Shown here: piece after piece, positions 2,656 through 41,138 of the stretch
Layout: every line of letters starts with the position of its first letter
How positions within the stretch are numbered: the stretch's first letter is position 1
Assembly: GCA_016783555.1 (NCBI GenBank)
Contig: JADHWH010000004.1
Span: 1-54,019, forward strand
DNA: 54,019 nt
DNA from: Candidatus Omnitrophota bacterium
GTDB lineage: Bacteria; Omnitrophota; Gorgyraeia; JABMRJ01
Direction: 5' to 3'
Made by a program: the position numbers and the translations under genes
Notes under the pieces: generated by a model
The model's database searches: none
Seen by the model: the letters and a program-made list of their open reading frames with translations, nothing else
Told to the model about the DNA's origin: nothing

Positions 2656-3216
2656 ATGAACCCCGTTAGACCTACAGGTTCTAATGGGGGCAGGAGGTCT
2701 AACGGGGTGAAGATAAAAGGCAAGGTTCATAAATTCGGCAATAACGTAAATACAGACGAAATAATACCAGCGTCGTATCTAAATACCACGGATCCCGGAC
2801 AGCTGGCGAGGCATTGCATGGAAGGCATAGATAAGAATTTTTCAAAAATTGTAAAGAGGGGCGATGTTATAGTAGCCGGCAGAAATTTCGGGTGCGGGTC
2901 AAGCCGCGAGCACGCCCCATTATCGATAAAGGGGGCCGGCGTATCGTGTGTCATAGGCAGGAGTTTCGCAAGGATATTTTACAGAAACTGCATAAATATC
3001 GGACTCCCTATATTGGAGTCGAAAGAAGCGGCAAGAAGGATAAGGGTGAATGATAGACTTAAAATAGATACAAAGAGAGGTACGATAGAAGATATTACCT
3101 TAAAGAAGACATTCTATGCGCAGAAATTCCCGCCTTTTATGCAGCAGATGATTTCCGCCGGCGGGTTGATGAAATATATAAAAAAGAAGAAGAGTAAAAT
3201 CCGCCTTCGCACATGA
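2656..3216 (+). CDS. leuD: 3-isopropylmalate dehydratase small subunit; start either ATG 2656 (reads through a family B element) or regenerated GTG 2707
   Basis: NTDEIIPA, NFGCGSSREHA, FARIFYRNCINIG. Confidence 0.93.
   Translation: MNPVRPTGSNGGRRSNGVKIKGKVHKFGNNVNTDEIIPASYLNTTDPGQLARHCMEGIDKNFSKIVKRGDVIVAGRNFGCGSSREHAPLSIKGAGVSCVIGRSFARIFYRNCINIGLPILESKEAARRIRVNDRLKIDTKRGTIEDITLKKTFYAQKFPPFMQQMISAGGLMKYIKKKKSKIRLRT
2661..2707. mobile_element. Family B miniature element, copy B1 (target duplication TGAA)
   Basis: TGAA-CCCCGTTAGACCT...AGGTCTAACGGGG-TGAA inside the leuD start ATGAAG. Confidence 0.85.
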
Positions 3217-3327
3217 ATGCGAAAATGAAAGTTTGGCTACGGCGGATTTAATTCGCACGTTCAAAGAAAGGAAAGGAGGAAGTTCAATTTACGAAAATCT
3301 TATATTTTCGTAAATTGAGTGCTCATT
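3192..3327. mobile_element. Family A four-way-junction element, partial copy A1 (right half)
   Basis: AAATCCGCC/GGCGGATTT hairpin, then AATTC-GCAC...TCAATTTACGAAAAT/ATTTTCGTAAATTGA-GTGC-TCATT as in the full copies. Confidence 0.75.
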
Positions 3328-3331
3328 AAAG

Positions 3332-4381
3332 ATGTATAAGATCGCTGTGATACCCGGAGACGGCACGGGGCCTGAGGTTGTAAACGAAGGCTTAAAGGTT
3401 CTCGATGCAGTATCAAGAAAGGCCAATTTTAAATACGATACAAAAATGTTCGACTATGGCGGAGAGCGCTATCGAAAGACAGGCGTGACTCTGCCAGACT
3501 CTGCGTTAGAAGAATTTAAGAAATTTGACGCGATATATCTGGGCGCGGTAGGCGACCCGGAGGTAAAACCGGGGATATTAGAAAAAGGGCTCCTTTTGAA
3601 ACTCAGATTCGGCCTCCAGCAGTACATTAATCTAAGGCCTGTTAAGCTCTATCCCGGCGTCTGGACGCCCGTCAGGGATAAGGGACCGGAAGATATAGAT
3701 TTTGTAGTGGTAAGAGAGAATAACGAAGGGCTCTATGTAGGCGAAGGCGAGTTTAAAGATAAGGGCACGGAGAATGAGATCGCCCTTCAGATTTCACGTA
3801 ACACAAGGAAGGGCGTTGAGAGATGCATACGCTTTGCCTTCGAATATACTAAAAAGAGAAATAAGAGGAAGAAGCTTACGCTCTGCGGCAAGACCAATGT
3901 CTTAACGTACGCATGGGATTTGTGGGAGAGGACGTTTTACGAAGTAGCGAAGGAATATAAAGAGATCCAGACCGATTATACCCATGTAGACGCGACATGC
4001 ATGTGGATGATCAAGAATCCCGAATGGTTCGACGTGATAGTTACGGATAATATGTTCGGGGATATAATAACAGATCTGGGCGCCATGATCCAGGGCGGTA
4101 TGGGTATAGCGGCGGGCGGAAACCTTAATCCCGAAGGCGTCTCTATGTTCGAGCCGATAGGCGGCTCCGCGCCTAAATATACGGGAAAAAATGTTATAAA
4201 CCCTTTAGCCGCGATATGCGCCCTCGAGATGCTGCTGGAGCATATCGGAGAAGAGAAGGCCGCGTCGATGATAGAGAGATCGGTTATACGGGTGACTTCG
4301 GAGAAATTAAAAAGCCTTTCAGCGGGGAAGATGGGCTGCACTACCCAGGAAGTAGGGGATTTAGTAGCTGAATTTTTATAA
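3332..4381 (+). CDS. leuB: 3-isopropylmalate dehydrogenase
   Basis: IAVIPGDGTGPEV, NLRP, NMFGDIITD, FEPIGGSAP. Confidence 0.9.
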   Translation: MYKIAVIPGDGTGPEVVNEGLKVLDAVSRKANFKYDTKMFDYGGERYRKTGVTLPDSALEEFKKFDAIYLGAVGDPEVKPGILEKGLLLKLRFGLQQYINLRPVKLYPGVWTPVRDKGPEDIDFVVVRENNEGLYVGEGEFKDKGTENEIALQISRNTRKGVERCIRFAFEYTKKRNKRKKLTLCGKTNVLTYAWDLWERTFYEVAKEYKEIQTDYTHVDATCMWMIKNPEWFDVIVTDNMFGDIITDLGAMIQGGMGIAAGGNLNPEGVSMFEPIGGSAPKYTGKNVINPLAAICALEMLLEHIGEEKAASMIERSVIRVTSEKLKSLSAGKMGCTTQEVGDLVAEFL

Positions 4382-4389
4382 AACGATAT

Positions 4390-4453
4390 GTCATTGCGAG
4401 CGAAGCGAAGCAATCTCTAGAGATTGCTTCGGCGCTTCGCGCCTCGCAATGAC
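4390..4453. repeat. GTCATTGCGAG-type (CGTC-class REP-like) palindrome
   Basis: GTCATTGCGAG...GAAGCAATCTCT/AGAGATTGCTTC...CTCGCAATGAC. Confidence 0.85.
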
Positions 4454-4461
4454 TGGGGGTT

Positions 4462-5493
4462 GTGATGAAGAATTGGAATGTGGCAGTAATGGGGGCGACC
4501 GGCGCCGTAGGCTCAAGGTTCCTCTCTATATTGGAGGAGAGGAATTTTCCGATAAAGAGCATAAAACTTCTGGCATCCAAACGCTCTAAAGGCAAGTCCA
4601 TTAAGTTCAAGAAGAGATCCTGCGAAGTAGAAGAGCTGACCCATGACTCATTCAAGGGAGTGGAACTCGTCTTATCAAGCGCAGGCGCCGAGAGGAGCTT
4701 AGAGTATCTACCCAGCGCCGTTAAGGCGGGCTGTATATGTATAGATAATTCAAGCGCGTTCCGCATGGATGAAAATGTCCCGTTAGTTGTACCTGAGGTA
4801 AACCCCCATGCCGTAAAGCGCCACAGAGGCATAATAGCCAACCCTAACTGTTCGACTATACAGCTGGTAGTAGCGCTGTGGCCGCTTCATAAAAAGGCTA
4901 AGATTAAGAGAGTTGTAGTCTCTACCTATCAGTCTGTATCAGGCGCAGGCGGTAAGAATATATCCGAGTTAAAAGAGCAGGTCTCTTACCTTCAAAAGGC
5001 CAAAGACGCGGATTTAATAGGTAAGCATACCGTGGGTAAATCCTGTATAAAGGAATTCCCGCACCAGATCGCGTTTAATCTGATCCCTCATATTGACAAA
5101 TTTCTGGATAACGCTTATACCAAAGAAGAGATGAAGATGGTCAATGAGACCAGAAAGATTATGGAGGACGATTCTATAGGGATAACCGCCACCGCTATAA
5201 GGGTTCCCGTCTATTATGCCCATTCCGAGAGCGTAAATATTGAGACTGAAGATAAATTAAGCCGAGATGAAGCAAAAGGGATTCTCTCCCGCGCGCCGGG
5301 AGTAACCCTCATAGATGATCCGCAAAATTTTAGATACCCTATGCCCCTAGATGCGGAGGGAACCGACGGTGTCTTTGTAGGAAGGGTTCGCGAAGATGAG
5401 TCTATACCAAACGGCCTTAACCTTTGGATTGTAAGCGACAACCTGCGAAAAGGCGCCGCCTTAAACGCCATCCAGATAGCTGAACTTCTTTAA
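4462..5493 (+). CDS. asd: Aspartate-semialdehyde dehydrogenase
   Basis: GATGAVG, IDNSSAFRM, ANPNCSTIQ, DNLRKGAALNA. Confidence 0.96.
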   Translation: MMKNWNVAVMGATGAVGSRFLSILEERNFPIKSIKLLASKRSKGKSIKFKKRSCEVEELTHDSFKGVELVLSSAGAERSLEYLPSAVKAGCICIDNSSAFRMDENVPLVVPEVNPHAVKRHRGIIANPNCSTIQLVVALWPLHKKAKIKRVVVSTYQSVSGAGGKNISELKEQVSYLQKAKDADLIGKHTVGKSCIKEFPHQIAFNLIPHIDKFLDNAYTKEEMKMVNETRKIMEDDSIGITATAIRVPVYYAHSESVNIETEDKLSRDEAKGILSRAPGVTLIDDPQNFRYPMPLDAEGTDGVFVGRVREDESIPNGLNLWIVSDNLRKGAALNAIQIAELL

Positions 5494-5501
5494 TATAAAA
5501 G

Positions 5502-6236
5502 ATGCGAAATATCAAGCTCACCATTCAATATGACGGTACTAATTATTCCGGGTGGCAGTCACAGAAGAACAGCCTGGCCATCCAGGATATTGTAGAGGCA
5601 TCTCTTAAAAAGCTTACCGGTCAAAGGCATAGGCTGATAGGCGCCGCGAGGACCGACGCGGGCGTCCACGCTAAAGGGCAGGTCGCTAACTTTAAGACAG
5701 AGTCGCGCCTCCCGCTTACCAATATAAGAGACGGCCTTAACCATAATCTTCCGCCCGATATAGTTATAGAGAACGCAAGGCACGTCGCGCTCGATTTTCA
5801 TTCTCGATACGACGCCAAAAGCAAATATTATCGCTATTCGGTTTATACGCAAAAGCCGGTAAGCCCCTTTTATAAAAACTTTGTTGCGCCGGTTCCGCGC
5901 AAATTGGATTTACGGGCGATAAAGAGAGAGTCAAAAGTTCTTTTGGGGAGGCATGATTTTTCCTCATTCCAGGGGAGTAATTCAAAGAGGCTAAACCCGG
6001 TAAGGAATATTTACAGGCTTGAATTGAAAAGGAGTGGTCTCTTTTTGCATTTTGATATCGAAGCCGACGGCTTCTTATACACTATGGTCAGAACGATTAT
6101 CGGCACGCTCATAGGTGTGGGGAGGGGCCGCCTAAAAGAAGGCAGCGTAAAGAAGATTCTACGGGAGAGAAAGAGGAGCCTCGCCGGTCCCACGGCGCCG
6201 GCCAGAGGCCTATCTCTTATTAAGGTGAGGTATTAA
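5502..6236 (+). CDS. truA: tRNA pseudouridine(38-40) synthase
   Basis: YDGTNYSGWQ, RTDAGVHA, FLYTMVR, TAPARGL. Confidence 0.96.
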   Translation: MRNIKLTIQYDGTNYSGWQSQKNSLAIQDIVEASLKKLTGQRHRLIGAARTDAGVHAKGQVANFKTESRLPLTNIRDGLNHNLPPDIVIENARHVALDFHSRYDAKSKYYRYSVYTQKPVSPFYKNFVAPVPRKLDLRAIKRESKVLLGRHDFSSFQGSNSKRLNPVRNIYRLELKRSGLFLHFDIEADGFLYTMVRTIIGTLIGVGRGRLKEGSVKKILRERKRSLAGPTAPARGLSLIKVRY

Positions 6237-6401
6237 ATGAGGCCATGATTTACGAAAATCTTTGATTTTCGTAAATCATATGGCCGAATTTACCCAGCCC
6301 CTGCGCGCAGGGGCTGGGTTCAATTCGACCTTTCAGAGAAGAGAAACAGAGGAGATAGGCTTACGAAAAATCTCCGATTTTTCGTAAGCCTAGGTCTCAT
6401 T
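6236..6401. mobile_element. Family A four-way-junction element, copy A2
   Basis: AATGA|GGCC..GGCC|GAATT..AATTC|GACC..GGTC|TCATT with three long internal hairpins; lies exactly between truA TAA and rsmE ATG. Confidence 0.88.
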
Positions 6402-6403
6402 GA

Positions 6404-7141
6404 ATGAGCAGATTTTACATAAGACCGGATAATATAAAAGAGAATAAGATTCGCGTTAACGGCGATGAGGCGCATCACATACTGCGCGTGATGAGGCTGG
6501 AGATCGGCGACGAGATAACGGCCTTCGACGGCACAGGCAGAGAATATTACGGGATAATAGAGGAGGTTTCAAAAAAGGGCGCAGTGATTAAGATAGAAAA
6601 AAGCAGTATGGCCAAAAGCGGCAAGAGGTATACCATAACACTCGCCCAGGCCGTACCTAAGATGGAGAAGATGGATTACATAATACAAAAGACCACTGAG
6701 CTGGGTATAGACTCGATAATACCCATGAATACAAAAAGGACTATTGTAAGATTAAACAAAGAGAAGATGCTGTCAAAACAGAGAAGGTGGAAGAGGATCG
6801 CCGCGGAGGCGTCAAAACAATGCGGCAGGGTTAACATTACCGAAATAGAGAGTTATACAAGCCTTAACGGGGTATTGGAAAGAGGCGATAGGTATGATCT
6901 CGCGCTTATGCCATCCGTCTTTTCCTGCGAAAAAAAGAGCCTCAAAAAGATCTTGCCCGATTTCCAGGGTAGATCCATCCTTTTGCTTATAGGGCCGGAG
7001 GGTGGATTCGACGCCGATGAACACAAGAGGGCGTCAGAAAACGGCGTTATCTTTGTCTCGCTCGGCGAGAACATACTCAGGTGTGACACCGCCGCCATAG
7101 CGGCGGTAGCTATGCTAAAATTTTCCTTAAGCGACATATGA
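6404..7141 (+). CDS. rsmE: 16S rRNA m3U1498 methyltransferase
   Basis: HHILRVMRL, QKTTELG, EASKQCGR, IGPEGGF, LGENILRCDTA. Confidence 0.95.
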   Translation: MSRFYIRPDNIKENKIRVNGDEAHHILRVMRLEIGDEITAFDGTGREYYGIIEEVSKKGAVIKIEKSSMAKSGKRYTITLAQAVPKMEKMDYIIQKTTELGIDSIIPMNTKRTIVRLNKEKMLSKQRRWKRIAAEASKQCGRVNITEIESYTSLNGVLERGDRYDLALMPSVFSCEKKSLKKILPDFQGRSILLLIGPEGGFDADEHKRASENGVIFVSLGENILRCDTAAIAAVAMLKFSLSDI

Positions 7142-7142
7142 T

Positions 7143-7258
7143 CCCCGTTAGACCTCAAGGAGGTTTAACGGGCGAGGAGGTCTAACGGGGTGATCCCCGT
7201 TAGACCTCTAACGGGAAGTGAAACTCACGAGCTCTAATAGATAGGAGGTCTAACGGGG
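7143..7258. mobile_element. Two tandem family B elements, B2a 7143-7190 and B2b 7195-7258 (target duplication TGAT x3)
   Basis: A-TGAT-[CCCCGTTAGACCT..AGGTCTAACGGGG]-TGAT-[..]-TGAT-AAG at the rsmE-stop/mtaB-start ATGA overlap. Confidence 0.85.
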
Positions 7259-8556
7259 TGATAAGAAAAGTCAAATTTTATACACTGGGGTGTAAGACCA
7301 ACCAGTATGAGACACAGGCCATAAGGGAGAGTATAATTTCTAAAAAACGCTTTGAGGAAACGCCGCCCTCGGAAAAAGCCGATATCTATATAGTAAATAC
7401 ATGCACAGTTACCGCTAAGGCAGACAGGAATTCGCGCTGGACGATAAATCATTGCCACAGAGAGAATCCCAATGCAAAAATTTTAGTCACAGGCTGCCTT
7501 GCTGAGCTGGACGATAAGATGATAAAGGACCTGCCCGGCGTCTTTTTAATAGCAAAGAACAGAGATAAGCACCGGATCAAGGATTTTCTAAATACGACAT
7601 ACGACATACGACATACGATATACGGGAGACAAGATTACACCCCATTAAAGATCAGCGGCTTTCAAAATCGGACCAAGGCATTTATAAAGATACAGGACGG
7701 CTGCGATAACTTCTGCGCCTACTGTAAAGTTCCGCTGGCAAGAGGAAGGTCAAGAAGCAGAGACGTAGAGGGCATTGTGGAGGAAGTAGCAAGGCTTTTG
7801 GATAGCGGCTTTAAGGAGCTCGTTTTGACGGGGATATGCCTTGGAGATTGGGGCAAGGGGCTTGAGGGAGATTTCAAACTGCCGGAACTCCTTGAAAAAA
7901 TCACAAAAATCAATAGAGATTTTAGAGTGCGCTTAAGCTCGATAGAGCCAAATTTGATTGAAGATAACTTAATAGAAAAGGTCGCAAGAGATGATAAGAT
8001 TTGCAATCATCTGCATATACCCCTGCAGAGCGGCAGCGATAAAATACTTAAAACTATGAGAAGGCCCTATACCGCGAATGAATACCTCCGGACTATTAAG
8101 AAGATACGAAAGGCGATACCGGCAATTTCAATAACCTCCGATGTGATGGTCGGGTTTCCCGGAGAGTCTCTCAAGGATTTTAACGCAACCGTCAGGCTGA
8201 TAAAAGATATTTTTCCTTCGAGACTTCATATTTTTCCCTATAGTAAAAGAAGAGGAACGCCGGCATATATATTGAATGACAAGCTTACACCGAAAGAAAA
8301 GAAAGCCAGGAGAGAGATCCTTGTAAATTTGTCAGAGAAATTATCCTATAAATACAGGAGACGCTTTTTAGGCAAGACCGTAAGCGGTCTTATCGAAGCG
8401 AAGAGGGATCCCGGGACAGACCTCCTTACCGGCTACACTGATACTTACATAAGATTTTTACTGAAAGGGGATGACTCGCTTATGGGTAAAATAACTGCGT
8501 TGAAAATCAATAAACTGGCTGGAAAATCTACCTTTTGTAAGCATTTATCTGGCTAA
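7258..8556 (+). CDS. mtaB: tRNA ms2t6A37 methylthiotransferase (radical SAM)
   Basis: TLGCKTNQYE, NTCTVT, CDNFCAYC radical-SAM motif, RLSSIEP; follows rsmE. Confidence 0.92.
   Translation: MIRKVKFYTLGCKTNQYETQAIRESIISKKRFEETPPSEKADIYIVNTCTVTAKADRNSRWTINHCHRENPNAKILVTGCLAELDDKMIKDLPGVFLIAKNRDKHRIKDFLNTTYDIRHTIYGRQDYTPLKISGFQNRTKAFIKIQDGCDNFCAYCKVPLARGRSRSRDVEGIVEEVARLLDSGFKELVLTGICLGDWGKGLEGDFKLPELLEKITKINRDFRVRLSSIEPNLIEDNLIEKVARDDKICNHLHIPLQSGSDKILKTMRRPYTANEYLRTIKKIRKAIPAISITSDVMVGFPGESLKDFNATVRLIKDIFPSRLHIFPYSKRRGTPAYILNDKLTPKEKKARREILVNLSEKLSYKYRRRFLGKTVSGLIEAKRDPGTDLLTGYTDTYIRFLLKGDDSLMGKITALKINKLAGKSTFCKHLSG
7592..7624 (+). repeat. Heptamer tandem repeat (ATACGAC)n inside mtaB
   Basis: ATACGAC ATACGAC ATACGAC ATACGAT ATACG. 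Confidence 0.85.
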
Positions 8557-8568
8557 TCTTAGTATCCC

Positions 8569-11056: not shown

Positions 11057-11058
11057 CC

Positions 11059-12825: not shown

Positions 12826-12855
12826 TACGGCAAAGGAGAAGCCGCGCTACATGAA

Positions 12856-12916
12856 CCCCGTTAGACCTCATAGGAGGTCGGCGGGGTGAAACGGAAGTAA
12901 TGGAGGTCTAACGGGG
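12856..12916. mobile_element. Family B miniature element, copy B3 (target duplication TGAA) in the rpoD start codon
   Basis: A-TGAA-[CCCCGTTAGACCT..AGGTCTAACGGGG]-TGAA-GAG; orphaned AAAGGAG site upstream of old ATG 12851. Confidence 0.85.
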
Positions 12917-14469
12917 TGAAGAGACACAAAGAGATAGAAGAACTTTTAAAGGTCGGCAAAAAGAAAGGCTGCCTTACTTACGAAGAGTTAAACAACATAC
13001 TTCCCGATACGATAGTGTCGTCCGAAGAGCTGGATAAGATATTTACCCTATTGGGCGATGAGAATATAAAGGTTGTCGACTCAAAAGAGGCTGCTTTAGA
13101 GCTTGAGAAGAAATCATCCGAGGAGGAATCGACGGAGCAGAAGAAGGCTCCTAAACGGGAAGGGCATGCCGATAAGCTGGTTCAGATGGATGACCCCGTA
13201 AAGATGTATCTCAGGCAGATGGGCCAGATACCCCTTTTGACAAGAGAGGAAGAGCTCAGGCTGGCTGAGAAGATTAAAAGTACGGAGTTTAAATTCAGTA
13301 GAGCGGTTTTAGAATGCAAGCCTGCCAGGAAAGAGGCCATAACGGTCGCGAAAGATATCCTTAGCAGCAAAAAGAGCATGGATGATTTTATCAACATAGA
13401 CCCAAAACCTGACAGGAAAAAGATCAAGGCCAACCTTAGGAAATTCGTCAGGCTCGCAAGGAGAGTCAGAAAAGGCCGGCGTATAGCCGAGATCTTGTCC
13501 GGTTTTAATTTGTGCACAACCGTGATCGAAGAGATATTCATCGCTATGAGGGCCAAGACTGCTGAGATTGAACAGATCGATAAGAATCTCAAGAGATCAC
13601 GGAAAAAAAGGGCACACGGCGAGGTTTCAAAACTTAGAAGAAAGAGGCGCACCATAGAGGCGGAATTCGGCCTTAAGCACCCGGAGATAAAAGAGGCCGT
13701 TAAGGCGATTAGGGTAAAAGAAGCGAAATTTAACAAGGCCAAGAAGGAGTTGGTGGCGGCCAATCTAAGATTGGTTGTGAGCATCGCGAAGAAATACACC
13801 AACAGAGGCTTATCGTTCCTCGATCTTATACAAGAGGGAAATATAGGTCTCATGAAGGCGGTTGATAAGTTCGAGTATGAGAGGGGATATAAATTTTCTA
13901 CATACGCGACATGGTGGATAAGGCAGGCGATAACGCGCTCCATAGCCGACCAGTCCCGCACTATAAGGATTCCCGTGCATATGACCGAGACTATAAACAG
14001 ACTTATACGCGTCTCGCGCGCTCTTGTCCAAGAGAACGGAAAAGAGCCCACGCCTGAAGAAATATCGTATGATATGAAGATGCCCGTAGATAAGGTAAGG
14101 GGGATTCTCAAGATAGCCCAGGAGCCCATATCGTTACAGACGCCGATTGGCGATGAAGGCGATACGCACTTCGGCGATTTTATAGAGGACAAACGCGCCG
14201 TCTCGCCCGCAAACGCAACGGCCTATTCTATGCTAAAGGAGCAGGTAGGAGACGTCCTTTCCACGTTGACCGACCGGGAGAAGAAAGTCCTCCGGCTTCG
14301 TTTCGGTATAGGCGACGGCTATCCCCGCACCCTTGAAGAGGTCGGCTCCATGTTCAATGTCACAAGAGAGAGGGTGCGTCAGATAGAGGCAAAGGCCTTA
14401 AGAAAACTGCGCCATCCTACCAGAAGCAGGAAGCTCAAGAATTTCTTGGCCTTAAGCGCAGGCCAGTAA
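12916..14469 (+). CDS. rpoD: Primary RNA polymerase sigma factor (GTG start formed by the element end)
   Basis: [51 protein letters not shown]. Confidence 0.98.
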
Positions 14470-20162: not shown

Positions 20163-20223
20163 TCCTTCTGACTTCAAAGAAGAGCTCATATTGTTAATGC
20201 ATACAAAACTTAGTCATGACCCC

Positions 20224-20304: not shown

Positions 20305-20448
20305 CTTCTCGATAAAGGCAAACTGTCTGAAAGGATAGGGCGCAAAGCTACGAGCCTAAAGCGAGGTCACGCTAAAGCGTGACCTACAGCAGAAGTCACA
20401 CTAAAGTGTGACCTACAGCTGCTAAGGTAGTCGGGCTGCCGAAAGAAG
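20305..20448 (+). ncRNA. Cyclic di-GMP-I (GEMM) riboswitch with REP-like insertions in the variable loop
   Basis: GGCAAAC-TGTCT-GAAA-GGATA-GGGCGCAAAGCTACGAGCCTAA...GGTAGTCGGGCTGCCGAA; P1 CTTCTCG/CGAAAGAAG. Confidence 0.85.
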
Positions 20449-22749: not shown

Positions 22750-23175
22750 ATGCCTGAGAGACTCTTAATCTATATTGACGGTGCGGCAAGAGGTAATCCC
22801 GGTCCTGCGGGAATCGGCGTAGTTATATTGGACGAAAATAAGAATAAGGTTAAGGAATATTCAAAGCACTTAGGAAGCGCCACAAATAACACCGCCGAAT
22901 ATAACGCCCTTATATACGCCCTGCAAGAGGCGCATATGCTGGGGGTAAAGGATGTAGTGCTGCACACAGACAGCGAACTTGTAGCCAAACAGCTTAAGGG
23001 CGAATTCAGGGTCAAGAATGCAAATATAAAACCGTTATTTGAGCAGGCGGTACATCTTATAAATGGTTTTGAGAAGGTAGAAGTTAAGAGAATCGACCGT
23101 TCTTTGAATAAAGAGGCCGACAGATTAGCCAATAAGGCGATAAATCTGTCGGGACTTAAGACAAAGATTGAATGA
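22750..23175 (+). CDS. rnhA: Ribonuclease HI family protein
   Basis: IDGAARGNPGPAG, TNNTAEY, DSELV, NKEADRLAN. Confidence 0.9.
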   Translation: MPERLLIYIDGAARGNPGPAGIGVVILDENKNKVKEYSKHLGSATNNTAEYNALIYALQEAHMLGVKDVVLHTDSELVAKQLKGEFRVKNANIKPLFEQAVHLINGFEKVEVKRIDRSLNKEADRLANKAINLSGLKTKIE

Positions 23176-23356
23176 GGCCATGATTTACGAAAATCTTTGA
23201 TTTTCGTAAATCATATGGCCGAATTCAACCCTTGACATTTTTTTATGCGAGAACTTCAGAAAAATGTCAAGGGTTCAATTCGCACATTCAGAGAAGAGTT
23301 TCATAGAAGATGAAGTTACGAAAAATCAAGGATTTTTCGTAACTTCAGTGCTCATT
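23171..23356. mobile_element. Family A four-way-junction element, copy A3
   Basis: AATGA|GGCC..GGCC|GAATT..AATTC|GCAC..GTGC|TCATT; flanked by TGA/TGA; supplies the rnhA stop codon. Confidence 0.88.
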
Positions 23357-23359: not shown

Positions 23360-23805
23360 GAGGGGTAGATCGGGTGGTCGCCCTTGACATTCGCGCATTG
23401 CGCGAATGTCAAGGGAGGAAAGTCCGAGCTCCATAGAGCGGCGTAGCGGGTAATGCCCGTCGGTCGAAAGGCCAGGATCAGAGCAACAGAGACAACGACT
23501 CCCCCCGTCTCGCTATTGTAAAATACGGCGAGACGGGGCAGAGGGTGAAAAGATGCAATCTCTACGCGGAGCAAGACCAAATAGGTCCCGAATCACCCTT
23601 CGACAAGCTCAGGGTGATCCTGAGCAAGGTCGCCGAAGGCGACCGCGTCGAAGGATCAGAAGCTGCTCGTTTCTACCGGTAAGACGTCGGTGTCGGGACG
23701 GGTTAGGTCGCTTGAGCCTTGTGGCAACATAAGGCCCAGATGGATGATCACTAACAGGCATCTAAGGTGCTTGCTTACAGAACTCGGCTTACAGATCTGC
23801 CCCTC
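23360..23805 (+). ncRNA. rnpB: RNase P RNA (type A-like, with insertions; P13/P14 apparently absent)
   Basis: P1 GAGGGGTAGATC/GATCTGCCCCTC, GAGGAAAGTCCGAGCTC, GCAACAGAGAC, GGAGCAAGACCAAATAGG, ACAGAACTCGGCTTAC. Confidence 0.95.
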
Positions 23806-23812
23806 ATTATTA

Positions 23813-31101: not shown

Positions 31102-32511
31102 ATGTTTAATATAAGCGATATATTAAAGGCTACAGGCGGAACACTATTATCTAAAGCTAAATCGCGTATGCCTATCCCCGGTCTATCTATCGATTCACGC
31201 AGCATAAAAAAGGGAGAGCTTTTTATAGCCATAAAAGGAGACCGTTTTGACGGCCACGATTTCATAGGCGATGCCCTGAAGAAGGGCGCCTCAGGCGCCG
31301 TCTTAAAGAGAATGCCTGCCGCGAAAATAGCCGATACGCAAATCATAATAAAGGTAAAAGAGACCACAAGGGCGCTGGGCGATATCGCCGCCTTTCACCG
31401 CAGGCGGTTCAACATCCCGGTAATCGGCATAACCGGCTCAAACGGAAAGACCACCGTGAAAGATATGGCATCTTTTATATTAGAGAAGAGATACAATGTC
31501 TTGAAGAACAATGGCACAGAGAATAATTATATAGGAGTGCCGCTTACATTGCTGAGGTTGCAAAAGAGGCATTCGACAGCCATCCTTGAGATGGGCGCAA
31601 ACCACCACGGCGAGATCGACAGGCTTACCGAGATAGTTAGGCCCACTATAGGGTTGATTACGGGTATCGGGCCATCGCACCTTGAATTCTTTAAGGATGA
31701 ACTCGGTGTACTAAAGGCAAAGACGGAGATGGTCCGCAGATTATCAAAAGAGGACTTGGTTATATTAAACGGCGATGATAAACTGCTTTCACGTATAAAG
31801 CCGCGTTGTAAAAAGATAGAGTTCGGACTTAAGGCCGGCAATGACTACAGGGCAACAGATATAAAAATAGATAAGAAGATATCCTTTCTCTTAAACGGCG
31901 TCTACCGCCTTAAGATAAAGACCCTGGGATGGCATAACCTATATAACGCCCTGGCCTCGATTGTTGTCGCGCGTCGTCTGGGAATCGATATGTCGGTGAT
32001 TAAGAATGCGCTTTTGGATTTTAAGACCCCTTCGATGCGCATGGAACTAAAGAGAGTAAAGGGTATAAATATTATAGACGACGCGTATAACTCTAATCCG
32101 CTTTCACTCAAATGGGCGATAGAGACACTTTCGCAATTCAAGACAAAAGGAAGGCGGATATTGGTATCGGGCGATATGCTGGAGCTGGGAGATAAATCCA
32201 AACTTTTTCATACCCTGGCCGGCCGCGCCGTAGCATCTTCGTCAGTAGATAGCTTTATCGGCGTAGGGAGGTTTTCGCGATTTGCCATAGACGGAGCCAG
32301 CCGCGCCGGCATGAAGAGGCAAAGCCTCTGGTCGTGTTCTACCGCAGAGGAGGCATCCGGCGTGCTGAAGAGAGTTGCAAAACGCGGAGATGCGGTATTG
32401 GTCAAGGGATCTCGCGGCATGTGTATGGAGAAGATAATAGAGAGGTTATCAAATGAGGCCATGACTTACGGAGCGCCAAAAGCGCGACGTAAGTCATGTG
32501 GCCGAATTTGA
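31102..32511 (+). CDS. murF: UDP-MurNAc-tripeptide--D-Ala-D-Ala ligase (last ~19 codons and stop come from element A4)
   Basis: ITGSNGKTTVK, DDAYNSNP, GDMLELG, VKGSRG. Confidence 0.96.
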   Translation: MFNISDILKATGGTLLSKAKSRMPIPGLSIDSRSIKKGELFIAIKGDRFDGHDFIGDALKKGASGAVLKRMPAAKIADTQIIIKVKETTRALGDIAAFHRRRFNIPVIGITGSNGKTTVKDMASFILEKRYNVLKNNGTENNYIGVPLTLLRLQKRHSTAILEMGANHHGEIDRLTEIVRPTIGLITGIGPSHLEFFKDELGVLKAKTEMVRRLSKEDLVILNGDDKLLSRIKPRCKKIEFGLKAGNDYRATDIKIDKKISFLLNGVYRLKIKTLGWHNLYNALASIVVARRLGIDMSVIKNALLDFKTPSMRMELKRVKGINIIDDAYNSNPLSLKWAIETLSQFKTKGRRILVSGDMLELGDKSKLFHTLAGRAVASSSVDSFIGVGRFSRFAIDGASRAGMKRQSLWSCSTAEEASGVLKRVAKRGDAVLVKGSRGMCMEKIIERLSNEAMTYGAPKARRKSCGRI

Positions 32512-32884
32512 CCCTTGACATTTTGCGTATGAATACAAAATATTATTTCTATATTCTAGAATGCAATGATAATAGAAAATATTATGGCTGCACAAACAAT
32601 TTAAACAGACGTCTTGAGGATCATTTGAAAGGTAAGGTGCAGGCTACTAAGTACAGACAGCCTGTAGAGTTAATTTACTATAAGGAATGTAATTCACGAC
32701 CAGAAGCGTTTAGGCTGGAAATGAAGTTTAAAAATGGAAAGACTAGAAAGAGTACCATAGATAAACTTATCAATTCATTTTCTAAGACAAAATGTCAAGG
32801 GTTTAATTCGCACCTTCATAGAAGAGAAACGGAGGAGATAGAGTTACGAAAAATCAGAGATTTTTCGTAACTCTAGTGCTCATT
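32452..32884. mobile_element. Family A four-way-junction element, copy A4, carrying a GIY-YIG nuclease gene in the arm-3 loop
   Basis: Same AATGA|GGCC|GAATT|GCAC junction; arm 3 ACCCTTGACATTTTG (32511-32525)/CAAAATGTCAAGGGT (32788-32802) encloses ~260 bp of coding DNA. Confidence 0.88.
32529..32870 (+). CDS. Small GIY-YIG nuclease (Slx1/YhbQ-UPF0213-like); alternative start ATG 32496
   Basis: YFYILEC..KYYGCTNNLNRRLEDH..G..TKYRQP..LIY..EAFRLEMKFK; visibly AT-richer than the neighbouring genes. Confidence 0.88.
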   Translation: MNTKYYFYILECNDNRKYYGCTNNLNRRLEDHLKGKVQATKYRQPVELIYYKECNSRPEAFRLEMKFKNGKTRKSTIDKLINSFSKTKCQGFNSHLHRRETEEIELRKIRDFS

Positions 32885-32886
32885 AA

Positions 32887-33972
32887 ATGTTCTACCATTT
32901 TTTATATTCGTTAAAGGATTACTGGTTCGGGTTTAACGTATTCAGATATATCACCTTCAGGGCGGCATTCTGCGGCGTGACATCATTTCTGATAAGCGTA
33001 ATGGTAGGGCCGTGGATTATAAAGACACTTAAAGGCCTTAATGTAAAGGAGAACGTCTTAAGGAGCGATGCGCCGGCTCTCTATCAATACCATAAGCATA
33101 AAGAGGGAACGCCCACTATGGGCGGTATAATCATAATCCTCTCTTTAGTTGTCTCAACACTCCTCTGGGCCGACCTTACCAATAAGTTCATAGTATTTTC
33201 GCTTTTGACCACATTATGGTTAGGGGCGATAGGTTTTATGGACGATTTCATAAAGTTAAAAGGAAAGTCTAAGGGGTTGAGGGCTGCCGCCAAACTCTTG
33301 GGGCAGGTTACAGTAGCTTTGCTGATCGGCTTAACGCTCTATCTGGATCCGGAATTTGATAATACCCTGATGTTCCCGTTTTTTAAAAATCTTATAATAA
33401 ATTTGGGGATCTTCTATATATTATTCGTGATTGTGGTCATAATCGGAGCGTCAAACGCCGTGAATATAACCGACGGCCTGGACGGTCTTGCGATCGGATG
33501 TATAATAATAATCGCTATAACATACGGCATCATGAGCTATGTTACGGGCCACTTAAAATTCAGCCAATACCTCAATATATTCTATAATCCCCATGCGGGA
33601 GAGCTCGGCGTCTTCTGCGCAGCCATATTGGGAAGCGGGCTCGGCTTCTTGTGGTTTAACGCACATCCCGCTACGGTATTTATGGGGGACACCGGTTCAC
33701 TTGCCCTCGGAGGCGCCATAGGAATGGTAGCCATATTTATTAAGAAGGAATTGCTTTTATTTCTTGTCGGCGGCATATTCGTGATAGAGACGCTTTCGGT
33801 CTTGCTGCAGGTTGCTTCGTTTAAATTAAAGAAGAAGAGGATATTCTTGATGGCCCCATTGCATCACCATTTTCAGTTAAAAGGGTGGCCGGAGAGTAAG
33901 ATAATAATAAGGTTCTGGATAGTCGCGATAGTCTTGTCGCTTCTTACGCTGGCGACGCTGAAACTAAGGTAA
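32887..33972 (+). CDS. mraY: Phospho-MurNAc-pentapeptide transferase
   Basis: KEGTPTMGG, FMDD, NAVNITDGLDGLA, FMGDTGS, APLHHHF. Confidence 0.98.
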   Translation: MFYHFLYSLKDYWFGFNVFRYITFRAAFCGVTSFLISVMVGPWIIKTLKGLNVKENVLRSDAPALYQYHKHKEGTPTMGGIIIILSLVVSTLLWADLTNKFIVFSLLTTLWLGAIGFMDDFIKLKGKSKGLRAAAKLLGQVTVALLIGLTLYLDPEFDNTLMFPFFKNLIINLGIFYILFVIVVIIGASNAVNITDGLDGLAIGCIIIIAITYGIMSYVTGHLKFSQYLNIFYNPHAGELGVFCAAILGSGLGFLWFNAHPATVFMGDTGSLALGGAIGMVAIFIKKELLLFLVGGIFVIETLSVLLQVASFKLKKKRIFLMAPLHHHFQLKGWPESKIIIRFWIVAIVLSLLTLATLKLR

Positions 33973-36438: not shown

Positions 36439-37538
36439 AGATTGCAATAGCATGCGGCTTAAGCGGAGGGCATATATTTCCGGGTATCGCCCTGGCTTAT
36501 GAGCTGACTAAAAAAAGCGGCAATGATATATTGATGGTGACAAGCCGGAAGAAGCTTGATATCGAGATCTTTGAAAAAAGCGGTTTGCGGTTTGAAGCCG
36601 TGCCGTATAATCCGTTTATCCTTACCCTTAATCCGGTAAAGCAGTTTTTGTTTGTATTAAGATTGGTCAGGGGGGTAAATCTGAGCGTAAAGGTATTGTC
36701 TCGATTTCGCCCGCAGTGCGTCGTGGGCTTCGGCGGTTCTGTGTCAGTGCCTATACTCTTTGCCGCATGGATTCTTCACATACCGCGGATTATACACGAG
36801 CAGAATATCATCGCGGGCCTCGCTAACAGACTGGTATCGCTCTTTGCGGACAGGATAGCGGTGAGCTTCGAGGAGACAAAGAGATTCTTCAACGAGAGGA
36901 AAGTAGTGGTCACGGGAAACCCCGTAAGGAGAAAATTTCTCAATTTAGACAAGATCCATTCCAGAGACAGGTTCGGCCTTGATAAGGAGAGATTTACCAT
37001 ATTTGTAATCGGAGGCAGCCAGGGGGCCGCGGCGCTCAATAATGCCGTGCTGGACGCCCTCGGCATGATGGATTATCAGGAGAAGAAGACTCTTCAGGTT
37101 ATCCATATAGCGGGCAGGGACGCCCAGGGGCCCGTAACAGAGAGGTATCAAAAGGAGAATATAAAATCCAGGATATTTTCATTCCTGGATGAGATAGACA
37201 GGGCGTATACGGCCTGTGATCTCGTAATATCGCGTGCGGGCGCTACGACCATAGCGGAGCTTGCACACTTTGAAAGGCCGTCGATATTGGTGCCGTATCC
37301 CAAAAGAAGAGTCCATCAGGCAGAGAACGCATACTTTCTTTCGGATAATAAAGCGGCCATAACCATTGAAGAGAAAGATTTGAATCCGGTTCAAATTAAG
37401 AATTTGATATTAGACCTTAAAAAAGATAAAAAACGTTTAGAGGATATGGCCTCAAGATTTAAGGGCCTCGGCGTCCGCGACGCAGATCTATTATTGGCAA
37501 GAGAGGTCCTCTCCTTAGGGGAACCAACGAATCCGTAG
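36435..37538 (+). CDS. murG: Lipid II GlcNAc transferase
   Basis: SGGHIFP, HEQN, TGNPVR, GGSQGA, SRAGATT; stop TAG lies in a REP half. Confidence 0.96.
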   Translation: MKIAIACGLSGGHIFPGIALAYELTKKSGNDILMVTSRKKLDIEIFEKSGLRFEAVPYNPFILTLNPVKQFLFVLRLVRGVNLSVKVLSRFRPQCVVGFGGSVSVPILFAAWILHIPRIIHEQNIIAGLANRLVSLFADRIAVSFEETKRFFNERKVVVTGNPVRRKFLNLDKIHSRDRFGLDKERFTIFVIGGSQGAAALNNAVLDALGMMDYQEKKTLQVIHIAGRDAQGPVTERYQKENIKSRIFSFLDEIDRAYTACDLVISRAGATTIAELAHFERPSILVPYPKRRVHQAENAYFLSDNKAAITIEEKDLNPVQIKNLILDLKKDKKRLEDMASRFKGLGVRDADLLLAREVLSLGEPTNP

Positions 37539-37594
37539 GGCACCCTTAAGTGTAACAGCACCCGTAGGGCACACTTAAGTGTGCCCTACGGGTG
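37533..37594. repeat. Family C REP: one half copy plus a 36-bp perfect palindrome
   Basis: CCGTAGGGCACCCTTAAG (37533-37550), then CACCCGTAGGGCACACTTAAGTGTGCCCTACGGGTG (37559-37594). Confidence 0.88.
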
Positions 37595-37646
37595 TGGATA
37601 AGTGCGGTTAATTATGGATAAGTGTGGATAACTTTAGGTTTAGGCG

Positions 37647-39032
37647 GTGCAGGAGATGTTAAATAAGAGCGCGAGGATACATTTTGTAGGGATAGGCGGC
37701 ATAGGCATGAGCGCCCTGGCCCAGGTGCTTTTATCCAGAGGCTATATCGTAAGCGGCTCAGATATAAACCTTAATAATCTGACGAGGCTTGTGGAATTTA
37801 AAGGCGGCAGGATATACAAGGGGCACGATAGAAAGAACGTGGGCGACGCAGAGATCGTCGTCTATTCCACGGCTGTATCCAAGGATAACCCGGAGTTGCT
37901 GGAGGCGGCGAAGCGCCATCTTAAGATATTGCACAGGGGCGAACTTCTGGGTGAATTGATGAAGGATAAGATCGGTGTTGCCGTAACCGGGGCGCACGGA
38001 AAGACTACCACCACCTCGATGCTTTCGGATATAATGATAAAGGCGCGCTTAGACCCCGTCTGCATATTAGGCGGGGAGTCGGTAAATTTAAGAAGTAATG
38101 CCTATGCGGGTAAGGGTAAGTATCTGATCGCCGAGGCGGATGAGAGCGACGGTTCTCACCTTTATCTCAACCCCAAGTTCGCCATATTGACTAATGTAGA
38201 CCGCGAACACGTCGATTACTACGAGAACATGGAGGAGCTTGTAAAAATAAATAGATCATTTTTGAAAAGGATTCATCCGGACGGCATCTTCTTCGGATTG
38301 ATCGATAACGAATTTATTAGAAAGATCCTCCTTCATTATGACCGTAGATTCGCTACATTCGGCCTGTCGAAAGAGGCCGACCTTCATGCGGCCAATATCC
38401 ATATGGAAGGAATGATTTCACGTTTTGATTGTATCTACCACAAAGAAAACCTGGGCACTATTAATATTAAGATACCCGGCATCCATAATGTGCTAAACGC
38501 CCTTGCGGCTTCTATCTTTGCGCTCCATATCGGAATAGATTTTAATGTCATAAGAGATGCGCTTTCTCTGTTTAAGTCGTCAAAACGCCGATTTGAGGTC
38601 TATCCCGATACCGACGGCATTACTCTGGTGGAAGACTACGCGCATCACCCGACGGAAATAAGCGCCGCGCTTGAAGCCTGTAGGCTGCTTAAGCCGCGCA
38701 GACTTATAACTGTCTTTCAGCCGCATCGGTATACCCGCACAAAGGCCCTGTCGAATGAATTTGGTTTATGTTTCGGTTTAAGCGACGAATTGATACTGAC
38801 GAATATATACGCAGCCAGCGAACCGCCGATAGAAGGCGTGACAGTAAAGAATATCTACGACAAAGTCCTGGAGAATAATTTTGAAAATGTGCATATAATG
38901 CCGAAAGAGAATATAGCCGATTACCTTTATAACTCTTCAGAGGACGGCGACCTTATAGCCGTATTGGGGGCGGGGGACATATCAGAGGTTGCGAAAGAGT
39001 TGGCGCAGAGGTTTAAAGATGAACCCCGTTAG
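37647..39032 (+). CDS. murC: UDP-MurNAc--L-alanine ligase
   Basis: GIGGIGMS, GAHGKTTT, EADESD, DYAHHPTE, FQPHRYTRT. Confidence 0.97.
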   Translation: MQEMLNKSARIHFVGIGGIGMSALAQVLLSRGYIVSGSDINLNNLTRLVEFKGGRIYKGHDRKNVGDAEIVVYSTAVSKDNPELLEAAKRHLKILHRGELLGELMKDKIGVAVTGAHGKTTTTSMLSDIMIKARLDPVCILGGESVNLRSNAYAGKGKYLIAEADESDGSHLYLNPKFAILTNVDREHVDYYENMEELVKINRSFLKRIHPDGIFFGLIDNEFIRKILLHYDRRFATFGLSKEADLHAANIHMEGMISRFDCIYHKENLGTINIKIPGIHNVLNALAASIFALHIGIDFNVIRDALSLFKSSKRRFEVYPDTDGITLVEDYAHHPTEISAALEACRLLKPRRLITVFQPHRYTRTKALSNEFGLCFGLSDELILTNIYAASEPPIEGVTVKNIYDKVLENNFENVHIMPKENIADYLYNSSEDGDLIAVLGAGDISEVAKELAQRFKDEPR

Positions 39033-39129
39033 ACCTTTGAAAGATGACAAGAAGGTCTAACGGGGTGAACCCCGTTAGACCTTTGAAAGATGACGAAGAG
39101 GTCTTATGGGGTCAGGAGGTCTAACGGGG
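39024..39129. mobile_element. Two tandem family B elements, B4a 39024-39065 and B4b 39070-39129 (target duplication TGAA x3)
   Basis: A-TGAA-[TIR..TIR]-TGAA-[TIR..TIR]-TGAA-AAG in the murB start; supplies the murC stop (TAG). Confidence 0.85.
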
Positions 39130-40040
39130 TGAAAAGAGACTTTAAAAAGGACTTGAGAGGATCGCTAAAGGGTTTCATATCTTTTAATGAATATTTAAGC
39201 GCGCATACCACATTTAAGATAGGGGGAAGGCCGCGCGTCTGGGTCGAGCCCGATTCTATCGAAGACTTAAGAAGCGCCCTCGAAATTTTTGGAAGGATAA
39301 AACTAAAGACTTTTTTAATAGGAAACGGCTCGAATGTATTGGCACGTGACGGCAGGCTCAATAGAGCCGTTATAAAATTATCCACCCCGCCTTTTAAAAA
39401 TCTGATTTTCGGCAAGGGTCATATTATTTGCGGCTGCGGCCATACCCTCCCCGGCCTTATCAGAAAGTGCATAGATAGGGGGTTGGCCGGCCTAGAGGGG
39501 CTTGCCGGCATACCCGGCAGTGTCGGCGGCGCCATTATGACGAACGCGGGCGGGATCGGCATGAGGAGCATATTGGATACCGTCGAGTGGATTAAGGTTA
39601 TGGATTATAAGCAAAGGAAGGTATCTTCGATTAAGAAGAAGAGACTGAGATACAATTACAGAGACTCCGACCTCTCAAAGTATGTGATATTAGAGGCGAA
39701 GATTTTGTTAAAGAAGGAAGCCCCGGATGCTATAGGCGAAAGGTATGATAGATTCTTGAGGCAAAAACTGGCTACGCAGGACTACAGACTGCCGAGCGCG
39801 GGTTGTATATTTAAGAATCCGAAAGAGTCAGGCCTGACAAGCGGCCAGATTTTAGAAAAGTGCAGACTAAAAGGGCTGAAGATAGGAGACGCAGAAGTAT
39901 CACGCAGGCACGCCAATTTTATCGTAAATAAAAGAAAAGCGAAATTCAAGGATGTAATGTCATTGATTAAGCTGGAACAGAGGCTGGTAAAGAGGAATTT
40001 CGGCATATGGCTGGAACCGGAAATAGAGATAGTAAAGTAA
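39129..40040 (+). CDS. murB: UDP-N-acetylenolpyruvoylglucosamine reductase (probable GTG start at 39129)
   Basis: HTTFKIGG, GNGSNVL, GIPGSVGGA, SAGCIFKNP, HANFIVN. Confidence 0.95.
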   Translation: MKRDFKKDLRGSLKGFISFNEYLSAHTTFKIGGRPRVWVEPDSIEDLRSALEIFGRIKLKTFLIGNGSNVLARDGRLNRAVIKLSTPPFKNLIFGKGHIICGCGHTLPGLIRKCIDRGLAGLEGLAGIPGSVGGAIMTNAGGIGMRSILDTVEWIKVMDYKQRKVSSIKKKRLRYNYRDSDLSKYVILEAKILLKKEAPDAIGERYDRFLRQKLATQDYRLPSAGCIFKNPKESGLTSGQILEKCRLKGLKIGDAEVSRRHANFIVNKRKAKFKDVMSLIKLEQRLVKRNFGIWLEPEIEIVK

Positions 40041-40981
40041 GAAGGTTTAAGAAGGTGGGCGTATTGGCAGGCGGCCCGTCCAGCGAAAGAGATATATCGC
40101 TTGCCTCCGGAGAGGCCGTGAATAACGCCTTATTAAAAGGAGGCGTTAATTCTGTCTTCATAGATGTCCGTGAGCGCGTAAGGGATGCGGTCAGGAAAAG
40201 CGGCGCCGACGCGGTATTTATAGCGCTGCACGGCGGCTTCGGAGAAGACGGGACAGTCCAGTCAATTCTGGAGAAGCTTAAGATCCCTTATACCGGTTCC
40301 GGCCCGGATGCGTCGAGGCTGGCGCTGGACAAGCTCGCCTCGCGCGAGATATTCCGCGGTATCGGCATCGATGTCCCGAAGTATAAGGTGCTAAAAAAAA
40401 ATAGAGATAGCCGGATGGACAGCCTTAATATGCCCGTTGTCGTCAAGCCTCAGAAGGAAGGTTCAAGCGTCGGCCTTTCAGTGGTATTCGATTTAAAGAG
40501 ATTAAAGAAAGCTATTGATAAGGCCTTTGATTACGGCGACAAGATATTAATAGAGGAATTCATAAGAGGGAGAGAGCTTACCGTAGGTATATTGGCCGAT
40601 AAGCCCCTTCCGGTGATAGAGATTGTTCCTGAGGGCGATCTGTATGATTATTACGCCAAATACGAAAGCCCCAAGACTAAATACCTGGTCCCGGCGCCTA
40701 TTACAGATAAAGATTTTGACAAGGCAAAAGAGATCGGATTAAAGGCGCATAAGACGCTTGGGTGCAGATACTTCTCGCGCGTCGATATGGTGCTGGGCGA
40801 CGACGGCAGAATCTATGTATTGGAGGTCAATACAATCCCCGGCCTTACGTCAAGGAGTCTCCTGCCCAAGGCGGCCTTGGTCACAGGGGTTGACTTTTGC
40901 GGATTATGTATTAAAATCTTAGAGGCATCTACTCTTAACGGCAGAAGGAGGTCAAATGAAGCCCGAACTTATGGAGCGTAA
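40007..40981 (+). CDS. ddl: D-alanine--D-alanine ligase
   Basis: GGPSSERDIS, LHGGFGEDG, EGSSVG, EVNTIPG; C-terminus comes from element A5. Confidence 0.96.
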   Translation: MAGTGNRDSKVRRFKKVGVLAGGPSSERDISLASGEAVNNALLKGGVNSVFIDVRERVRDAVRKSGADAVFIALHGGFGEDGTVQSILEKLKIPYTGSGPDASRLALDKLASREIFRGIGIDVPKYKVLKKNRDSRMDSLNMPVVVKPQKEGSSVGLSVVFDLKRLKKAIDKAFDYGDKILIEEFIRGRELTVGILADKPLPVIEIVPEGDLYDYYAKYESPKTKYLVPAPITDKDFDKAKEIGLKAHKTLGCRYFSRVDMVLGDDGRIYVLEVNTIPGLTSRSLLPKAALVTGVDFCGLCIKILEASTLNGRRRSNEARTYGA

Positions 40982-41138
40982 GCAAACATAAGTTCGTTGG
41001 CTGAATTTGACCCTTGACATTTTGCCTGTCGACTTCACCAGCAAAATGTCAAGGGTTTAATTCGACCCTTCGGGGAAGAGTTTCAGAGAAGATAGACTTA
41101 CGAAAAATCTTTGATTTTTCGTAAGCCTAGGTCTCATT
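40955..41138. mobile_element. Family A four-way-junction element, copy A5
   Basis: AATGA|AGCC..GGCT|GAATT..AATTC|GACC..GGTC|TCATT. Confidence 0.87.

Follow-up and report, generated by a model that had tools for sequence, protein, structure and literature searches.

A 54,019-nucleotide stretch of Candidatus Omnitrophota DNA (contig JADHWH010000004.1, here called the window) contains dispersed copies of an element, family A, which is a real repeat of approximately 180 bases that occurs in Omnitrophota bacteria and folds as a four-armed cloverleaf. In one of these copies the loop of the third arm is filled by a gene for a single-domain GIY-YIG nuclease (positions 32529–32870, + strand; 113 codons; PF01541, E 6.9e-15), which an earlier note on this DNA, made from the sequence alone, had overlooked. 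Because of this gene we relate family A to the Ssn nuclease and hairpin-repeat systems (Chenal et al., 2025; PMC11893778). We give about an even chance to family A being a mobile element akin to these systems, with derivatives that are mostly gene-less. The element is best read as a branched variant of nuclease-plus-hairpin-repeat elements, in which the paired repeats form one of the four arms of a conserved scaffold.

The genome that was searched (G000; 1.77 Mb in 78 contigs) includes the window as its contig C53. Five genomes of the same family are referred to as G001–G005, and L numbers denote loci fetched from relatives. Within the window we confirmed the four full copies reported in the earlier note, each with the junction motifs AATGA/RGCC..GGCY/GAATT..AATTC/GMMC..GKKC/TCATT, as well as one partial copy; the triplets flanking the copies were also found as given there. 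All five copies are located on the + strand at gene junctions, matching the neighbouring genes in orientation, as had been noticed before. Copy 1 (6236–6401; 3′ half 6322–6401) is full and gene-less, lies between truA and rsmE, and has an arm 3 of the ACCCAGCCCCTGC type. Copy 2 (23171–23356), likewise full, is located between an RNase H gene and the RNase P RNA gene (23362–23807). Its closing helix P1 is formed by positions 23171–23175 (5′ strand) and 23352–23356 (3′ strand), which enclose arm 2 (23176–23220), arm 3 (23221–23281) and arm 4 (23282–23351). Copy 3 (32452–32884; 3′ half 32805–32884) is the full copy with the nuclease gene in arm 3 and lies between murF and mraY, and copy 4 (40955–41138; 3′ half 41059–41138), full and gene-less, lies between ddl and ftsQ. 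The partial copy, previously placed at 3192–3327, occupies positions 3199–3327 between leuD and leuB; it lacks arm 2 and consists of the 3′ half (3250–3327) behind a different hairpin, ATCCGCCTTCGC..GCTACGGCGGAT (3199–3249). This combination of the same hairpin with the 3′ half is also present in relatives (L014, L021, and L029).

A covariance model of the 80-nt 3′ half, R1, was built from 14 sequences. Searched against G000, it gave 16 full-length sense matches with E-values from 1.5e-18 to 1.8e-13, including those in the window (2.4e-18, 6.0e-18, 1.7e-18, and 1.8e-17 for copies 1–4, and 1.8e-13 for the partial copy). The 26 other matches at E ≤ 1 are all weaker (E ≥ 2.7e-5) and correspond mostly to antisense or hairpin-only pieces of known copies, with further weak matches at the C19 copy, on C62 and on C13. 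Motif searches and R1 combined bring the total for the genome to 14 full copies, two loci with the 3′ half alone (3250–3327 of the window and C64:31112–31190), and one truncated copy on C19. For 13 of 16 copies the closest relative is found inside the same genome, at 84–94% identity, a pattern which suggests that the copies were amplified or homogenised in this lineage, and not in a very recent burst.

In line with the earlier note, which did not recognise the fold as a described family, no Rfam 15 family reached its gathering score in the window. ARAGORN called two tRNAs only, and nothing tRNA-like at the copies. No description of the family A element was found in the literature with supplements excluded, so lists of Ssn homologues or repeats in such supplements may include Omnitrophota.

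Pairing and covariation in the cloverleaf

Copy 2 on its own folds into the four-way junction as drawn, with zero unpaired junction bases. The predicted free energy of its sense strand is −55.6 kcal/mol as DNA (z −12.8) and −79 kcal/mol as RNA (z −11.1), with none of 200 shuffles folding as well, and that of the antisense strand is −55.6 kcal/mol as DNA (z −14.5). Over 13 copies from G000, 96.4% of the cells in the alignment pair, compared to 86.9% in shuffles and 26–46% when the partners are slid. Compensatory changes were found at 25 of the 65 pairs, a number that none of 500 shuffles reached. By helix, such pairs amount to 11 of 14 in arm 2, 7 of 12 in distal arm 3, 2 of 4 in P4a and 4 of 17 in the arm-4 hairpin; the closing helix P1 (0/5) and the base of arm 3 (0/9) have none, though they are conserved.

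To cover more genomes, 5′ and 3′ halves were paired using nhmmer over G000 and all fetched loci. Among 121 full-length 3′ halves, 58 have a detected 5′ half upstream, and these represent 50 distinct four-way elements. P2 is Watson-Crick paired in 194 of 200 cells and occurs as at least nine helix types, and P4a is paired in 187 of 200 cells with at least six helix types. For P1, 232 of 250 cells are Watson-Crick pairs with a single double change, and the base of P3 (236 of 250 cells) shows no covariation and has an A·C mismatch in 10 elements. In 83 distinct 3′ halves from many genomes, aligned by fitting to the structure of the model and so biased toward that structure, 93.1% of the cells pair (73.1% in shuffles), and 22 of 25 pairs have compensatory changes.

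The earlier note had described a perfect junction supported by covariation, with selection acting on shape rather than on sequence. The fold is real and the shape is kept despite sequence change in arms 2, 3, and 4, as is evident from the compensatory changes in both the 13 copies and the 50 elements. P1 and the base of arm 3 are conserved only, and as they are without covariation, the perfect junction rests on conserved sequence. Judged from these alignments, it is well supported that the arms are under selection for pairing and that closure of the junction depends on conserved sequence. The pairs drawn for distal arm 4 hold, with the exception of one A·C mismatch in copy 4 that had gone unremarked. 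A pseudoknot of the purine linker with the arm-4 loop, as judged by eye, fits some copies only and was rejected.

The arm-3 nuclease gene, mobility and fit into operons

The nuclease gene of copy 3 is positioned between the inverted repeats CCCTTGACATTTTG and CAAAATGTCAAGGG, and its reading frame continues through arm 4. PF01541 spans residues 4–72 of the 113-residue protein, for which the best PDB matches are 1zg2_A (E 2.6e-8) and 1ywl_A (E 2.1e-7), both small UPF0213 proteins. A GIY-YIG gene lies exactly in the arm 3 loop in 5 of the 50 distinct four-way elements (copy 3, L068, L081, L182, and L124). All five genes are surrounded by an inverted-repeat pair, the flanks of which pair with each other, neither being a hairpin alone. 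The L124 protein, from an element with the same arm type as copy 3, is 65% identical to that of copy 3. More generally, the arm-3 proteins are 65% and 57% identical within a shared repeat type and 31–46% identical across repeat types, so that the repeat type tracks the protein clade. In a relative (L129:3641–3790), the nuclease gene is replaced by a Cys-rich frame of approximately 45–60 codons with its own AGGAGG, for which no Pfam match was found. Arms of the CCCTTGACATT type gave 27 matches, or approximately 13 hairpins in G000, mostly in gene-less family A copies. The class is rich in small GIY-YIG genes, which occur in 38 of 41 genomes, and many of these genes reside inside ACCC..GGGT hairpins.

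A GIY-YIG hairpin element was also observed in L038 and L039 (from the relatives G031 and G027), where it interrupts a prepilin gene at the G/FTLIEL motif. Its 3′ repeat codes for a substitute leader (..KRFLSVTG) in frame with the pilin body, and TTTAC is repeated at the two ends.

The insertion sites in the window (leuD–leuB, truA–rsmE, RNase H gene–rnpB, murF–mraY, and ddl–ftsQ) are flanked by unrelated housekeeping genes, and three of them are without family A in related genera. The truA–rsmE junction has no family A in all five family relatives, being empty in G001, G002, and G004 and holding unrelated insertions in G003 and G005. The murF–mraY junction is empty in all five, and ddl–ftsQ is empty in the four relatives in which it is readable (G001–G004). 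At the RNase H gene–rnpB junction, G000 and L139 carry the element, G005 carries a short variant of it, and G001–G004 have an empty site. Matches to R1 were found in 8 of 41 relatives and in 21 of 151 genomes of the class, patchy by family and with up to 16 per genome. A scan with an IUPAC pattern, in one genome per species, gave at least 114 stretches, of which 80 are listed; by title, 55 of those listed are from Candidatus Omnitrophota/Omnitrophica, 14 from ‘uncultured Planctomycetia’, 3 from ‘uncultured bacterium’ and 8 from other taxa. When 54 pattern loci were searched again, 39 had an R1 match at E ≤ 1e-6, and five re-searched loci titled from other phyla were without an R1 match. Owing to its presence and absence at orthologous sites, family A is, as far as genome comparison can tell, a mobile element and not a fixed regulatory RNA.

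The ends of the element, AATGAG and CTCATT, are 6-bp inverted repeats. Direct repeats at the ends are imperfect, with ATTGAA being perfect in 2 of 14 copies. The 3-bp duplication considered possible in the earlier note finds no support, as the left triplet of copy 1 is the stop codon of the upstream gene and the empty sites of relatives are without a clean duplication. The contigs of four DNA runs contained no clean empty allele; a joint in these contigs (32523>32790) is accounted for by other, gene-less copies mapping there. A Y1 transposase as mobiliser was rejected, as it neither adjoins the copies nor correlates with the element. G000 has eight Y1 (HUH) transposase-like genes (PF01797; C42, C46, C50, C60, C64, C68, and C70), mostly of 205–340 codons. 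None of the eight adjoins a copy, and the two that share a contig with copies (C64 and C68) are approximately 14 kb away. Y1 genes are found in 34 of 41 genomes regardless of the element; in G003 the 3′ half gave 10 matches and no Y1 match was found.

Family A fits closely between the genes of its host operons. In all 13 copies for which the contig includes an upstream gene, the upstream reading frame ends 0–60 nt inside the element, with the TGA of AATGA as stop codon in four cases; this affects gene annotation in metagenome-assembled genomes of Omnitrophota. Many copies end in CTCATT followed by (G/A/T)AAGGAGG, 5–8 nt and ATG, and for 80 of 99 3′ halves a same-strand frame of at least 90 codons begins 1–23 nt downstream. 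With its own stop and start signals, the element shows how insertion inside essential operons (mur/fts, leu, rRNA) is tolerated. At copy 3, 17 nt lie between the stop of the extended murF frame and the ATG of the nuclease gene, and 16 nt between the stop of the nuclease frame and the ATG of mraY. These chained stops and starts, and the absence of a visible ribosome-binding site at the nuclease ATG, suggest that the gene may be expressed by coupling to the host operon. Two other candidate signals did not hold up: promoter boxes at the 3′ end, where no convincing −10 or −35 was seen by eye, and a ‘split ribosome-binding site’ that folding would carry to the start codon, which fits only 2 of the 5 copies without a 3′ AAGGAGG. 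A full family A element also fills the 23S–5S rRNA spacer of the relative G005 (L015:1119–1437), with its end 3 nt upstream of the 5S rRNA.

Ssn proteins are single-domain GIY-YIG enzymes of approximately 94 residues (Chenal et al., 2025; PMC11893778). They cleave single-stranded DNA (ssDNA) next to oriented hairpin repeats and leave double-stranded DNA and RNA uncut. The repeats flank the nuclease gene and are scattered genome-wide; the authors note that the arrangement resembles an insertion sequence and raise mobility of repeat-gene-repeat units, which could not be shown (PMC11893778). For family A, comparative evidence that units of this sort move comes from the coexistence of copies with and without the gene, from orthologous junctions that lack the element and from its uneven distribution over the class. 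The branched repeat, much larger than a single hairpin, offers a concrete substrate for studying how a 90-residue nuclease gains specificity. If family A is a mobile element of this kind, its complete form would be the one with a one-domain GIY-YIG gene in the arm 3 loop between matched inverted repeats. Most copies would have lost the gene, with the hairpin alone remaining, as in MITEs, the miniature transposable elements with inverted repeats. The cloverleaf would form in one DNA strand while this is single-stranded, so that it is ssDNA, and not RNA, that folds. Such a fold would join the two element ends at the base of P1. Its hairpins, with conserved unpaired stretches beside them, would be substrates of the type to which Ssn-type GIY-YIG nucleases bind in ssDNA and which they nick; the arm-3 nuclease may then act on the element itself. 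The element is found in sense orientation at operon stop/start junctions, with its 5′ end providing stop codons and its 3′ end often providing AAGGAGG.

A more far-reaching proposal, which we regard as rather unlikely, is that the cloverleaf is the substrate of a new form of mobility, in which a one-domain GIY-YIG nuclease without a DNA-binding domain recognises a branched ssDNA fold holding both ends and drives copying into operon stop/start junctions, or else that its transcript is a punctuation signal setting the 5′ ends of downstream mRNA, RNase P RNA and 5S rRNA. If nuclease-driven copying of the cloverleaf were true, Ssn-type nucleases would be true selfish mobile elements and not domesticated enzymes.

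Several observations weigh against a mobile element of the Ssn type. GIY-YIG enzymes hydrolyse DNA and, to our knowledge, are not known to join strands, which leaves the copying step unexplained. GIY-YIG genes are present in 38 of 41 genomes and the element in 8 of 41, so the gene family is not specific to the element. The scaffold of arms 2 and 4 is constant over three nuclease/repeat types, and something else may recognise it. Empty sites could be located in the family relatives, as the earlier note had proposed, and no clean target-site duplication was definable from them. Neither of two metagenome scans detected an empty murF–mraY or RNase H gene–rnpB site. No family A arm, arm 3 included, matches the NTS/SRM consensus CGTCATTCCCGCGMAVGCGGGAATCYRG of the Ssn systems (PMC11893778); in G000 only two repeats on C46 do. 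The two remaining points would also fit a function as RNA. A gap of 3–5 nt separates the end of the element from the 5′ ends that Rfam assigns to RNase P RNA (G000 and L139) and 5S rRNA (L015), and two genera retain a pheT–6S copy at an identical location, where P4a shows the compensatory change GCAC/GTGC to GCGC/GCGC.

Alternative readings of the fold

The alternative that survives best, although we consider it unlikely, is that the cloverleaf acts as RNA in operon transcripts: lying between cistrons, it would undergo processing, or would couple or shield translation starts, and would be kept because the host benefits or because it renders the insertion harmless. Every copy is in sense orientation, and 33 of the 80 3′ halves with a downstream frame end just 1–4 nt before the start codon. 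Arm 4 contains a conserved purine-rich unpaired stretch, the mini-hairpin has G·T 21 times and A·C 7 times, and the fold predicted for RNA is strong (−79 kcal/mol, z −11). However, structured RNAs typically carry many more G·U pairs than A·C, and in the long helices P4a and P4c of family A there are 20 G·T and 22 A·C among 1637 cells. The hairpin loops occur in both orientations, four loop sequences being found also as their reverse complement (CAAAG 10 vs. CTTTG 6; CAGAG 7 vs. CTCTG 1). As G·T is not above A·C in the long helices, the loops flip orientation and both strands fold equally, these data favour pairing at the level of DNA. The presence and absence at orthologous junctions of unrelated housekeeping genes and the lack of an Rfam or tRNA-like match likewise argue against an RNA.

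The sense orientation itself is uninformative, since the sense strand may equally be the lagging-strand template. From a complete relative genome (G040; L210–L229), 20 blocks of 20 kb were sampled, and in most of them more than 90% of the long frames are on one strand. The GC skew (up to ±0.19) follows the gene strand, with several reversals of sign over the length of the chromosome. Because genes and GC skew run together in this genome, transcription and replication are inseparable as causes of the orientation.

It is quite improbable, in our view, that no global fold is selected and that the junction is a by-product of adjacent or nested palindromic hairpin modules, each kept separately. Such modules are apparent in two nested copies of G000 (C78:10372–10643 and C68:82865–83141), which consist of a normal copy with an extra ACCCAGCCCCTGC hairpin (ACCCAGCCCCTGCACGCAGGGGCTGGGT) inside the arm-4 mini-hairpin and GTTCA repeated on both sides, with C48a as the empty site. 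Arm 3 is swapped wholesale among at least four stem types, and the same ACCC..GGGT hairpins stand alone elsewhere, even as P3 of RNase P RNA. Covariation is absent from P1 and the base of P3, and approximately half of the 3′ halves are without a detected 5′ half (63 of 121 matches, duplicates included). Independent modules are at odds, however, with the recurrence of order, arm lengths and junction sequences across 50 distinct elements from many genomes and families, and with the covariation of P2 and P4a right to the junction (at least nine and at least six Watson-Crick helix types). In addition, TTACG..CGTAA hairpins in G000 were found solely inside family A.

A self-cleaving or self-splicing RNA, such as a small intron-like ribozyme with a homing-endonuclease gene in the style of group I introns, is very improbable. 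In its favour, GIY-YIG genes are common cargo in group I intron loops, some ribozymes likewise combine a four-way junction with unpaired purines that are conserved, and the element is kept out of the coding sequences on either side. Against it, the element lies between genes and not within them, so that splicing would restore nothing, its purine-rich stretch differs between copies, and a permissive Rfam scan of positions 32300–33000 gave chance-level hairpin matches only (E 0.11–8.3) and no intron or ribozyme family at E ≤ 10. A likeness to the hairpin ribozyme was also rejected, as the purine strings resemble each other in copy 1 only.

Other hairpins occur in these genomes beside family A. 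P3 of the RNase P RNA in the window (approximately 23381–23415) has the stem CCCTTGACATT..AATGTCAAGGG, the same as in arm 3 of family A, and the P3 hairpin of the G001 RNase P RNA has approximately the same sequence as a dispersed hairpin beside the 6S gene of that genome (L202 and L207); judging by these stems, mobile hairpins seem to replace P3. A second and commoner hairpin family, ACCCCGTTAGAC..GTCTAACGGGGT, has 136 arm matches, or approximately 68 hairpins, in G000, always in the context ATGA, hairpin, GAA. It is present in the window at 2660–2708, 12855–12917, 39023–39066 and 39069–39130. The hairpin at 2656 is apparently the in-frame N-terminus of the leuD reading frame. A gene-bearing version (C76:22540–22770 of G000) reads from the ATG of the junction via both repeats to a TGA. 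Finally, a c-di-GMP-I riboswitch (window 20307–20443) contains a 56-nt insertion of two tandem hairpins belonging to yet another repeat type, GGTCACGCTAAAGCGTGACC and then AGTCACACTAAAGTGTGACC, each followed by TACAGC, and upstream of it, at 20221, CCCTTGACATT is followed 17 nt later by ATTATA, promoter-like in appearance.

Comparison with known systems

Group I introns with GIY-YIG genes resemble family A in that the nuclease gene resides in a helix loop of a larger conserved fold. Family A differs from them in being located between genes, in being too small and in having neither an intron core nor an Rfam match, and its protein carries no further DNA-binding domain beside GIY-YIG.

Bacterial MITEs (Correia, ERIC, BOX, and RUP) and the Rickettsia palindromic elements are short, structured and multi-copy, and are tolerated inside operons or genes. 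Family A is likewise short, structured and multi-copy, but its terminal inverted repeat is just 5–6 bp and a target duplication is not clear. Its fold is branched instead of a single hairpin, and the gene-bearing partner encodes a nuclease and not a known transposase.

REP/BIME and IS200/IS605-derived palindromic elements are composite, oriented hairpin clusters that are thought to act as ssDNA. As in REP/BIME with RAYT (Y1) and in IS200/IS605-derived elements, the non-autonomous copies of family A far outnumber the gene-bearing ones. Unlike in these systems, there is no Y1 transposase inside or beside the element, and the associated gene is a GIY-YIG nuclease.

Closest are the Ssn/SRM (NTS) systems (PMC11893778). 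One locus of G000 (C46:9091–9470) has a GIY-YIG gene with inverted GTCATTCCCGCGAAAGCGGGAATC on both sides, which corresponds to the published Neisseria Ssn NTS consensus; these are the only two such repeats of the genome, and the encoded protein is 36% identical to the arm-3 protein. Family A shares with the Ssn/SRM systems a single-domain GIY-YIG protein of approximately 90–100 residues, the location of its gene between inverted repeats, gene-less repeats scattered in the genome, a repeat type that varies with the protein, and a strand-oriented element (PMC11893778). It differs from the Ssn systems in that its repeat pair makes up a single arm of a conserved scaffold with four arms and approximately 180 nt, and in that its copies are found exactly at operon stop/start junctions, to which they bring stop and ribosome-binding signals (PMC11893778).

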